Origin: a virus | Taxonomy: Duplodnaviria > Heunggongvirae > Uroviricota > Caudoviricetes | Direction: 5' to 3' (one strand) | IMG/VR virus record: IMGVR_UViG_2671181188_000017 | DNA: 53,578 nucleotides | Shown here: piece after piece, positions 9,289 through 11,108 of the stretch | Layout of the letters: each line of letters starts with the position of its first letter | Numbering within the stretch: position 1 is the stretch's first letter | Program-made: the position numbers and the translations under genes | The notes under the pieces: model-generated | Databases searched by the model: none | Seen by the model: the letters and a program-made list of their open reading frames with translations, nothing else | Told to the model about the DNA's origin: nothing

Positions 9289-9855
9289 TTAAACAGGATA
9301 AAAACCAGAGCTTCCATTCTTATTTAAGTTATGGATTTTATTTGCATCATTAATTTTTATTTGGAACGTCGGACCTTTATTCTCAAGAATTACAATCTGG
9401 AAATTATAGTCCCTTTTGATTAATGCGTGATAAAATGAATCACTGAGACTGACGCTATTAACATCCGATAGAGAACCCCCTCTATCTTTATCAAAGTGCG
9501 TCACTAATGGACTATCAAGCACAACAAATCCAATGAATGGATTCCCTTTTCTTGATAAAAATTCCGCAAAGCAAATGGTAAATATAGCATGCATTACTGC
9601 ACGGGTACCTTTACCAAACATTCCTCGGCGTTTCCCATTGATATTAAAGTCATATGTATCTTCGTCAAATCGCACTTTGTTATCTTTAGAATTTTCAAAA
9701 TTTATATCATTCAAAAAGTCTTGCATCGCTATTTCTATATCATACAAATCAGCTACTGTTAAGGAGTCAAAGTCCTCGGCGGAGTATTTAAGTTCGTCAA
9801 CATCATCTTCTTTATCTTGTAATGAAGATAGAATGCTATGTTTTGTGTGATCCAT
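9289..9855 (-). CDS. Hotspot ORF F: ABC/SMC-type ATPase C-terminal lobe (Walker B-like GFVVLDSP)
   Basis: 188 aa; hydrophobic stretch ending in D (FIGFVVLDSP); start ATG overlaps the ORF E stop as TAATG; AT-rich. Confidence 0.55.
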   Translation of the reverse strand: MDHTKHSILSSLQDKEDDVDELKYSAEDFDSLTVADLYDIEIAMQDFLNDINFENSKDNKVRFDEDTYDFNINGKRRGMFGKGTRAVMHAIFTICFAEFLSRKGNPFIGFVVLDSPLVTHFDKDRGGSLSDVNSVSLSDSFYHALIKRDYNFQIVILENKGPTFQIKINDANKIHNLNKNGSSGFYPV

Positions 9856-10445
9856 TAAAAGATTGTCTTTATATTCATAAAGTGATTCAAGAGATGAATG
9901 TATTGTTTTATATTTTTATCTTCTAACGTCTTAAAATCACTTTTTTCTGATTGATAAATTTCATTAACATCATTTTTTCTTAACATAATTAATTCATGTT
10001 CGCGAACATTAGATCCGATTGATTCAATTAATCCTTTCAGCTGGCTTTTGATTTTCAATTTTTCTGCATTACACGACAAAAAACAATCATCATATGATAT
10101 TTCATTTTCTTTTTTTTGCGGTGTATTACAGAACTCACAATAAATATCTGCAAAATTATTTAAATAGAAATTCGCCTGTGATACAACATCTATTCTTTGT
10201 AGATCTATAAAGTATTGGTCTTTAAGAAGACTAAATCTTTCAATGAGTAATGATAAGTATTTTTCCCTGTCACTGATTGAATATAATTCATCACTTAACT
10301 CTTTTAATAATTGCTTCTTATCATCAAGTGCATCAACAATACCTTTCAATATATCTTTCGATGATTCAATATCTTGCTCTACTTTCTCAAGTTCTCTTGA
10401 AACAATGACTTGATCATATTCAGGATAAATTAATTGCGCTTTCAA
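9855..10445 (-). CDS. Hotspot ORF E: coiled-coil segment with CxxC (zinc-hook-like) motif; probably continuous with ORF D
   Basis: 196 aa, heptad-rich, contains CEFC and CFLSC; has no ATG (track start is TTG); in the same frame as ORF D, separated only by one TAA and 10 sense codons. Confidence 0.4.
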   Translation of the reverse strand: MKAQLIYPEYDQVIVSRELEKVEQDIESSKDILKGIVDALDDKKQLLKELSDELYSISDREKYLSLLIERFSLLKDQYFIDLQRIDVVSQANFYLNNFADIYCEFCNTPQKKENEISYDDCFLSCNAEKLKIKSQLKGLIESIGSNVREHELIMLRKNDVNEIYQSEKSDFKTLEDKNIKQYIHLLNHFMNIKTIF

Positions 10446-10475
10446 TTCCTCATAAATATTTGCAATTTGATTTTT

Positions 10476-11108
10476 TTAAAAATATCTTGCTTTTTTATTT
10501 GGTTTTTCTGCTAAGGAGTTAGTATCATCTCTCTGAGTTAAAAGGAATTTAAATTCAGACTTTCTTTTTGTCTCCTCGCTAGGAATATCAGAAAGAATTA
10601 ACGACTTCTCAGTTAACACTCTTAATTCATCAATACAAAAAAATTCAAAAACATTATTAAGATTAAATTTATGAAGAGTATTACTTAAGTTTGTTCTTAC
10701 TTTAGCCTCTTTGAAATTCAACCTACCATAAAAGTATGATGAAAAACTCTTTTTAGACGAAGCACTTTTGGAAAAAACCATCAACAGATTAGCTTCACTA
10801 ACATTTTCAATGCTCGAATCATATAATCTGTAATGGGCGCTATCCTGAAGAGACCTCTCAATTGTCATTACCCTACCTTGAAAATTAAATTCCAGATAGG
10901 CTAAATCATAACCTTGAGCATGATCGATATCTTTATTTTTTAGTTTTTCACTCCCTAATAAATATCGAATCAAATAATATATGTATGTTTTTCCAGAGTC
11001 AGAACCACCATATAAAATAGTCAATTTAGAACCAAATTCAATTATAGCATCTAATTTATTGAATCCGGTTACCTTTATTTTTCTGAACGTAAAAAAATTG
11101 TCATTCAT
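10476..11108 (-). CDS. Hotspot ORF D: ABC/SMC/Rad50-type ATPase N-terminal lobe (Walker A GGSDSGKT)
   Basis: Track ORF 10476..11135; likely ATG at 11106-11108 (MNDNFF..) overlapping the ORF C stop as ATGAATGA; Walker A LTILYGGSDSGKTYIYYL. Confidence 0.6.
   Translation of the reverse strand: MNDNFFTFRKIKVTGFNKLDAIIEFGSKLTILYGGSDSGKTYIYYLIRYLLGSEKLKNKDIDHAQGYDLAYLEFNFQGRVMTIERSLQDSAHYRLYDSSIENVSEANLLMVFSKSASSKKSFSSYFYGRLNFKEAKVRTNLSNTLHKFNLNNVFEFFCIDELRVLTEKSLILSDIPSEETKRKSEFKFLLTQRDDTNSLAEKPNKKARYF

Follow-up and report, generated by a model that had tools for sequence, protein, structure and literature searches.

Three open reading frames in a P4-like prophage of Escherichia coli O157:H7 are the remains of a single Lamassu lmuB gene, most probably a dead one

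The window analyzed here is a stretch of 53,578 nucleotides (nt) from a virus of the Caudoviricetes (IMG/VR record IMGVR_UViG_2671181188_000017). Between positions 9289 and 11108 it carries three open reading frames (ORFs), D, E and F, which an earlier note, made from the letters alone, described as an SMC/Rad50-like ATPase divided among three ORFs. The note offered four alternatives for this arrangement: a gene inactivated by a nonsense codon, a sequencing or assembly artefact, a recoding event, or a genuinely split ATPase. Our analysis identifies the ORFs as the remains of lmuB in a type II (short) Lamassu (ABC-3C) operon with the gene order LmuA-LmuC-LmuB, and favors the first of the four. 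All positions are given in window numbering, and the LmuB pieces and the Lamassu operon lie on the minus strand. The assignment of the whole span 9289..11108 to an LmuB pseudogene, which amounts to 606 codons when repaired, is based on the PADLOC profile LmuB PDLC03863, on intact orthologues and on the pseudogene ECs_0293 annotated in strain Sakai.

ORF D (10479..11108, or from 10476 with its stop codon included) corresponds to LmuB codons 1-210; the profiles and an AlphaFold2 model delimit it as the N-terminal head lobe, which contains Walker A. It starts with the ATG at 11108, with a TTG further upstream at 11135, and its Walker A motif GGSDSGKT (G34-T41) is found at 10986-11009. The frame is closed by a TAA at 10476..10478, LmuB codon 211, identified as a nonsense codon by comparison with O55:H7, Proteus and Pantoea. 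Ten sense codons (KNQIANIYEE) follow the TAA and lead, with the D frame kept, to the TTG at 10445 that opens ORF E (10445..9855). The arrangement of D and E as one frame parted by this TAA and ten codons is thus as the note described it, and ORF E indeed has no ATG of its own near its start. The in-frame part of ORF E (9915..10475; codons 212-398) comprises the ascending coiled coil, the CxxC apex (C324-E-F-C327, at 10128-10139) and the larger part of the descending coiled coil. It ends at the frameshift site, a run of five A (T5 on the plus strand) at 9913..9917 that appears as a gap in the DNA alignment to intact operons. The remaining segment, 9855..9914, was recognized in the homologue alignment as an out-of-frame tail of 19 codons (NIKQYIHLLNHFMNIKTIF) plus a TAA at 9855-9857; the −1 frame of the same segment encodes genuine LmuB residues 399-418. 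ORF F (9289..9855; codons 419-606), whose frame differs from that of D and E, completes the descending coiled coil and adds the C-terminal head lobe, with a signature-like GKG at codons 499-501 and a Walker B-type FVVLDS at 9511-9528. Its ATG at 9855 overlaps the stop of ORF E as TAATG.

Profile searches place the three ORFs on one protein. On the 610 positions of PDLC03863, ORF D covers 3-199 (E = 1e-49), ORF E 231-412 (2e-21) and ORF F 428-608 (5e-37). Since the three spans are consecutive, the ORFs tile a single protein end to end. Pfam adds matches of AAA_23, AAA_15 and SMC_N to ORF D and of DUF3732 to ORF F, so that the ATPase motifs read by eye in the note are borne out by both PADLOC and Pfam, and its sum of about 600 amino acids (aa) for one SMC-like protein agrees with the tiled profile and with orthologues that are single ORFs of 606 aa. 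The intact Proteus orthologue was modeled with AlphaFold2 from an alignment of 30 sequences (mean predicted local distance difference test score, pLDDT, 85.9). The model consists of an N-terminal head lobe (residues 1 to about 200), an ascending helix (233-317), an apex loop with the CxxC (318-338), a descending helix (339-439) and a C-terminal head lobe (452-606). The apex cysteines, Cys324 and Cys327, are invariant in 30 of 30 homologues. From these limits it follows that the TAA cuts the protein at the boundary between head and coiled coil, which is where the note had set it, and the frameshift between E and F falls within the descending coiled coil.

The modeled orthologue was compared by Foldseek with the PDB, where Lamassu LmuB chains rank at the top (9uxh, 9hqu/9hqx and 9nyg; E from 2e-15 to 3e-12), followed by Rad50 and then by SMC proteins. 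The sequence profile matches LmuB 9hqu at 1e-9, with the CxxC and the Walker B region aligned. The Walker B consensus reported for short Lamassu is hhhhD[Q/S/T/E] (PMC12663957), and the VVLDS of ORF F agrees with it. The features of a Lamassu LmuB ATPase, namely Walker A, coiled coil, C-terminal head and variant Walker B, are consequently all recognizable in the three pieces.

Comparison with intact homologues reveals what separates the pieces. A search with the conceptually repaired LmuB returned 26 full-length homologues (at least 43% identity, 594-612 aa), all of them single ORFs. The nearest intact orthologues, both of 606 aa (sequences P0001 and P0002), come from Proteus mirabilis (86% identity, 100% coverage) and Pantoea alhagi (74%). 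The alignment to intact homologues for which the note had called therefore returns one uninterrupted ORF, and not separate genes. Intact loci in Proteus mirabilis and Pantoea encode uninterrupted LmuA (335 aa), LmuC (152 aa) and LmuB (606 aa); the intact Proteus operon is L007, and the Pantoea operons (L008 and L009) sit in a P4-like element with the same int-LmuACB-delta-psu-sid layout. The operon of the window measures 3277 nt against 3279 nt for the intact ones, with a DNA identity of 89% to Proteus and 79% to Pantoea. As expected of pseudogenes, the operon alignment contains only two gaps, of 1 nt each, plus the nonsense codon, and is otherwise collinear. When the three lesions are repaired together, the operon encodes proteins of 335, 152 and 606 aa.

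The nonsense codon results from one substitution at 10477 (A to T on the plus strand) that turns TTA (Leu211) into TAA. Codon 211 is TTA in the O55:H7 strains DEC5B and DEC5D as well as in Proteus, and CTG in Pantoea; leucine is found at this position in the nine closer of ten aligned homologues. The indel in lmuB is seen on the minus strand at 9913-9917, where the window reads GAT-AAAAA-TAT and Proteus GGT-AAAAAA-TAT (A5 versus A6). Two observations fix its place: the final 19 residues of ORF E (NIKQYIHLLNHFMNIKTIF) have no counterpart in the homologue alignment, and the frame of ORF F upstream of its ATG reads KYKTIHSSLESLYEYKDNLLMDHTKH, in agreement with KKYKKIHLLLESLYEYKDNLLMDYTKH of Proteus. 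The 1-nt deletion therefore falls after Lys398. An alternative placement of the break at the TAATG itself, by loss of a T from a T5 run, was ruled out, since ORF E ceases to resemble the homologues ~19 residues before its end. The TAATG overlap to which the note drew attention is thus present, but the actual break lies 19 codons upstream of it. On the alignments, the overlap is incidental: its TAA is no more than the first out-of-frame stop, and its ATG is the conserved internal Met419.

The third lesion affects the effector gene. LmuA (11559..12565; 335 codons from a GTG start when repaired) was identified by the PADLOC profile LmuA PDLC03852 and the CTD6 domain PF20282, and is found in two overlapping ORFs of 138 and 205 aa. 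The first (12565..12149) matches profile positions 10-140 and the second (12176..11559) positions 141-333, the latter also carrying CTD6 (8e-30). The lesion between them is a 1-nt deletion at about 12159-12160, adjoining an A7 run. Together, the two ORFs present the N-terminal effector domain and the ABC-3C C-terminal domain expected of a Lamassu LmuA (PDLC03852 positions 10-333, CTD6). No match to the effector domain was found by sequence in Pfam, NCBIfam or the PDB. A PD-(D/E)xK-like motif, GDKGRD...YQCK, was spotted in LmuA by eye only. LmuC, the ABC-3C middle component 2 (MC2), is an intact ORF of 152 aa at 11101..11559 (Pfam MC2 PF20288, 6e-30; PADLOC LmuC, 2.5e-36) that overlaps the LmuB start by 8 nt and equals the LmuC of the intact operons in length. 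The middle component is accordingly in its Lamassu position between LmuA and LmuB. What a Lamassu operon should have and this one has not is a full set of intact genes, as lmuA is frameshifted and lmuB carries both a nonsense codon and a frameshift.

A separate observation concerns lmuA in the related operons. In L006 (Proteus mirabilis) and L008 (Pantoea alhagi), the deposited LmuA proteins count only 145 and 201 aa, start from downstream ATGs and leave out the N-terminal effector domain. The short gene calls raised the suspicion of recurrent LmuA inactivation, which was rejected, since the DNA is intact in both (6543-7550 in each, with a GTG start); the gene callers had missed the GTG.

The lesions are fixed in the population. 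The 3.4-kilobase region is 100% identical in E. coli O157:H7 Sakai, EDL933 and many others, and 310 complete E. coli records, drawn exclusively from O157:H7 and its O55:H7 relatives, carry the locus at an identity of 99% or more. Alleles were counted over 309 E. coli records, that of the TAA with an offset 99-nt query. The frameshift allele of lmuA is invariant (309 of 309, O55:H7 included), and that of lmuB is shared without change by 306 of 309. The TAA-bearing 99-mer has identical copies in 295 of the 309; DEC5B and CB9615, both O55:H7, are among the other 14. No record among the 309 matches the repaired lmuB allele, in keeping with the absence of an intact allele that is expected for a pseudogene. 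Eight E. coli records cover only 79% of the 99-nt query 12112-12210 and stop at about 12189. One of the records reported to carry the locus is classed as a plasmid.

The distribution of the lesions gives their order. Both frameshifts are common to O55:H7 and O157:H7 and are therefore older than the split between the two. The TAA, absent from O55:H7, came later, in the O157:H7 branch. In comparison with the intact orthologues, the ratio of non-synonymous to synonymous substitution rates (dN/dS) of the repaired frame is 0.05-0.14 per segment. Such low values in every segment indicate that lmuB was under purifying selection as a single-unit gene for most of its history. Within the O55/O157 lineage the picture is another: eight of nine substitutions are non-synonymous or nonsense (P = 3e-4 at an omega of 0.1, and 0.44 under neutrality), and selection has been relaxed.

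The decay continues, and its further steps are independent of one another, which together with the relaxed selection is what a pseudogene would be expected to show. Private indels have accumulated in lmuB: DEC5B carries one additional T at 9972, and single bases are missing from DEC5D (a T at 9941) and from strain OkiPb01686 (an A at 11091). The insertion sequence IS1203 sits inside the ORF D piece, with its Walker A, in three O157:H7 strains (M1300706002, 6535NalR and 6535WT); one copy, in L010 (NZ_CP089270.1), occupies 1797-3010 and leaves as the remaining coding sequence (CDS) a 159-aa 'ATP-binding protein'. A protein of 344 aa from a Logan assembly (P0027; window ~11559..9855) documents a deletion that joins LmuC (…SIIKN) to piece E (QIANIYEEL…). 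This deletion takes out the whole Walker A piece, and a short KN/KNQ similarity is seen at its junction. Two further strains match the region only partially, over 87% and 11% of the query.

Taken together, the data argue, with a probability that we put at about 0.94, that lmuB is a dead single gene of a Lamassu operon in the psu-int hotspot of prophage Sp2, disrupted with its operon by the three lesions described. In this lineage, lmuA is frameshifted by the 1-nt homopolymer deletion and lmuB by the 1-nt deletion in its A-run after Lys398, and a subsequent change of TTA to TAA truncates lmuB at codon 211 in O157:H7 only. The ancestral operon was presumably an anti-phage and anti-plasmid system carried as AT-rich cargo of the hotspot. 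In its intact form, two LmuB protomers would have been joined at the CxxC zinc hook. In Lamassu, two LmuB protomers and LmuC sequester LmuA, which is set free upon DNA-end recognition and ATP-dependent head engagement; the freed LmuA tetramerizes into the active nuclease, which kills the infected cell and aborts the infection (PMC12663957; bioRxiv 10.1101/2025.03.14.643221). The Walker A substitution K40A abolishes defence (PMC12663957; bioRxiv 10.1101/2025.03.14.643221). The fragment encoded by ORF D is without coiled coil, hook and C-terminal lobe, and none of the fragments can form a composite ABC ATPase site. For this reason we infer a complete loss of function.

Several points weigh against this interpretation. 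The loss of function of the operon is a conclusion that we draw, and the ORF of LmuC has stayed intact. Because of the young age of the O157:H7 clade, the 100% conservation of the fragments is uninformative on a residual function, for or against. Of the three records that differ at the lmuB frameshift site, two were inspected individually. The Prokaryotic Genome Annotation Pipeline (PGAP) treats the fragments of EDL933 and of most other O157:H7 genomes as three ordinary CDSs. In support of the interpretation, a span of exactly 9289-11108 is annotated in RefSeq Sakai as the pseudogene ECs_0293, "AAA family ATPase".

The likeliest of the alternatives, although a very unlikely one, is a functional split, in which Walker A lobe, coiled coil and Walker B lobe are translated separately and then reassemble into an active LmuB, or in which the fragments have taken on a new role. 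All three pieces are still open, ORF F begins with an ATG, PGAP calls the fragments, and a GAGG is found just upstream of the TTG of ORF E. This GAGG is however only 2 nt from the TTG, whereas the true starts of lmuA and lmuC have plausible signals, and ORF F has no Shine-Dalgarno sequence upstream of an ATG that is a conserved internal methionine. None of the 26 full-length homologues is divided like D, E and F. A polypeptide made from ORF E would carry 19 residues of frameshift junk and lack 20 native residues of the descending coiled coil. A working system would in addition need the rescue of lmuA, as the effector itself is frameshifted. Finally, selection is relaxed and further disruptions, an IS insertion among them, have occurred in the same lineage.

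Extremely improbable in our estimate is programmed recoding, by which read-through of the TAA and a −1 frameshift, or transcriptional slippage on the A-run, would yield full-length LmuB at a low and regulated level. Lamassu is toxic when over-expressed (PMC12663957), and a low expression of LmuB could thus in principle be useful. The frameshift does lie in an A-run, with ORF F in the −1 frame relative to ORF E. The sequence GAT-AAA-AAT is, however, no X-XXY-YYZ slippery heptamer, and a run of A5 is too short for efficient transcriptional slippage. A TAA in the −1 frame overlaps the frameshift site. No stimulatory RNA structure was detected in the 83 nt downstream of that site, where folding was not significant against shuffled sequences (z = −0.70). 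As the orthologues are uninterrupted at both sites, the recoding signal is not conserved. Conserved signal, canonical slippery sequence and stimulatory structure are hence all wanting. Recoding would moreover take two independent events in lmuB and a third in lmuA, and O55:H7 does without the TAA and has other frameshifts instead. A sequencing or assembly artefact of the source genome, suggested by the two lesions of three that lie in homopolymer runs typical for some sequencing errors, can practically be dismissed, because the identical sequence with its lesions recurs in about 300 independently sequenced complete genomes from many laboratories, Sakai and EDL933 included, and because the TAA is a substitution and no indel.

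On the interpretation of lmuB as a dead gene, one may further ask why the operon was lost. It is conceivable, if improbable and frankly speculative, that the loss of Lamassu was selected and not neutral, and that its inactivation before the O55:H7/O157:H7 split was permissive for the acquisition of Shiga toxin (Stx) phages. Lamassu might be incompatible with the many inducible lambdoid prophages and the pO157 of the O55:H7/O157:H7 lineage because it triggers abortive death on replication intermediates of phages and plasmids. As LmuA is normally sequestered by LmuB and LmuC, its gene might then have been the first to be hit. If true, the locus would be a rare documented case of 'inactivate, then replace' turnover of defence in P4-like satellites, which a 2026 survey describes as uncommon. 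An adaptive loss might also bear on how the pathogen tolerates so many prophages.

The structural relatives of LmuB place the operon in context. With the type II or short Lamassu systems of Salmonella enterica (LmuACB; 9hqu/9hqx) and Vibrio cholerae (DdmABC; 9nyg), and with 9uxh, it shares the gene order LmuA-LmuC-LmuB, an LmuB whose roughly 600 aa include Walker A (K40), a short coiled coil, a single CxxC zinc hook and a variant Walker B, an LmuC of the MC2 type, and an LmuA with an ABC-3C C-terminal domain (CTD6). It differs from them in that lmuA and lmuB are disrupted, in an LmuA effector domain that finds no sequence match in Pfam, NCBIfam or PDB, and in an LmuB that has only 13-15% sequence identity to the solved chains. 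The Proteus (L007) and Pantoea (L008/L009) operons are far closer, with 79-89% DNA identity over the whole 3.28 kilobases and no other indels; their genes of 335, 152 and 606 codons are uninterrupted, while the window carries the three lesions described above. Rad50/SbcC, from which Lamassu is proposed to have evolved (PMC12663957), has in common with LmuB the split ABC head, the antiparallel coiled coil and the CxxC apex. In LmuB, by contrast, the coiled coil is far shorter, there is no Mre11/SbcD partner, and a serine replaces the Walker B glutamate; LmuB is moreover a cargo gene of a defence island, and Rad50/SbcC a repair gene.

The operon is flanked by sid-like, psu and delta genes and, at its other end, by a tyrosine integrase gene. 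One boundary is formed by psu (8050-8601; Pfam Psu, 5e-42) and delta (8607-8879; Ogr_Delta, 1e-16) of a P4-like satellite, spanning 8050..8879 on the plus strand, and the other by a P4-type tyrosine integrase at 12569..13801 on the minus strand (annotated as intS, 393 aa). Rousset et al. (2022, PMC9122126) described the psu-int interval of P4-like satellites as a defence hotspot, and the surrounding region is annotated in Sakai as 'prophage Sp2, P4-like phage'. The G+C content of the operon is 28-34%, against 45-51% in the flanks. AT-rich variable cargo between psu/delta and int is common to P4-like hotspots (PMC9122126, PMC13586616). Pseudogenes of defence genes are reported to be rare in P4-like elements, at less than 1% of pseudogenes (Nucleic Acids Research 2026, PMC13586616); against that survey, the cargo of the window is mildly notable, being a defence system that is dead but still recognizable and has become fixed in an entire pathogenic clone. 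An inactive P4-hotspot system from O157:H7 strain FRIK944 (PMC9122126) was suspected to be the same operon, but the supplement shows it to be a two-gene cytidine deaminase system.

Both the defence family and the hotspot were known before, the genome is well studied, and the reference annotation already treats the locus as a pseudogene; its importance hardly goes beyond correct annotation. A literature search by locus tags returned nothing relevant. In most RefSeq records of O157:H7 the fragments are listed as three proteins (one "AAA family ATPase" and two "hypothetical"), with the halves of lmuA as two more; these five proteins should become two pseudogenes of a Lamassu operon. The locus also exemplifies how a TAATG overlap can mimic translational coupling, and it shows a dead defence system persisting in a P4-like hotspot, a setting in which such pseudogenes are reportedly rare. 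As a lineage marker the TAA is clean, being present in O157:H7 and absent from those O55:H7 strains that were examined.

Some minor observations concern the surroundings. The sid-like capsid-size gene at 7301-8053 (plus strand) has a weak match to the Psu domain (7e-10), and its PGAP name, 'septation initiation protein', looks misleading. Past about 13955 (window ~13930-14120), O157:H7 and O55:H7 are no longer alignable, at a place that corresponds to the annotated Sp2/Sp1 junction in Sakai; the P4-like element therefore has a different neighbor in each serotype. The sole tRNA gene of the window is a tRNA-Thr (CGT) at 52135-52210 on the minus strand, which may be the attachment site of the tandem Sp1/Sp2 prophages.

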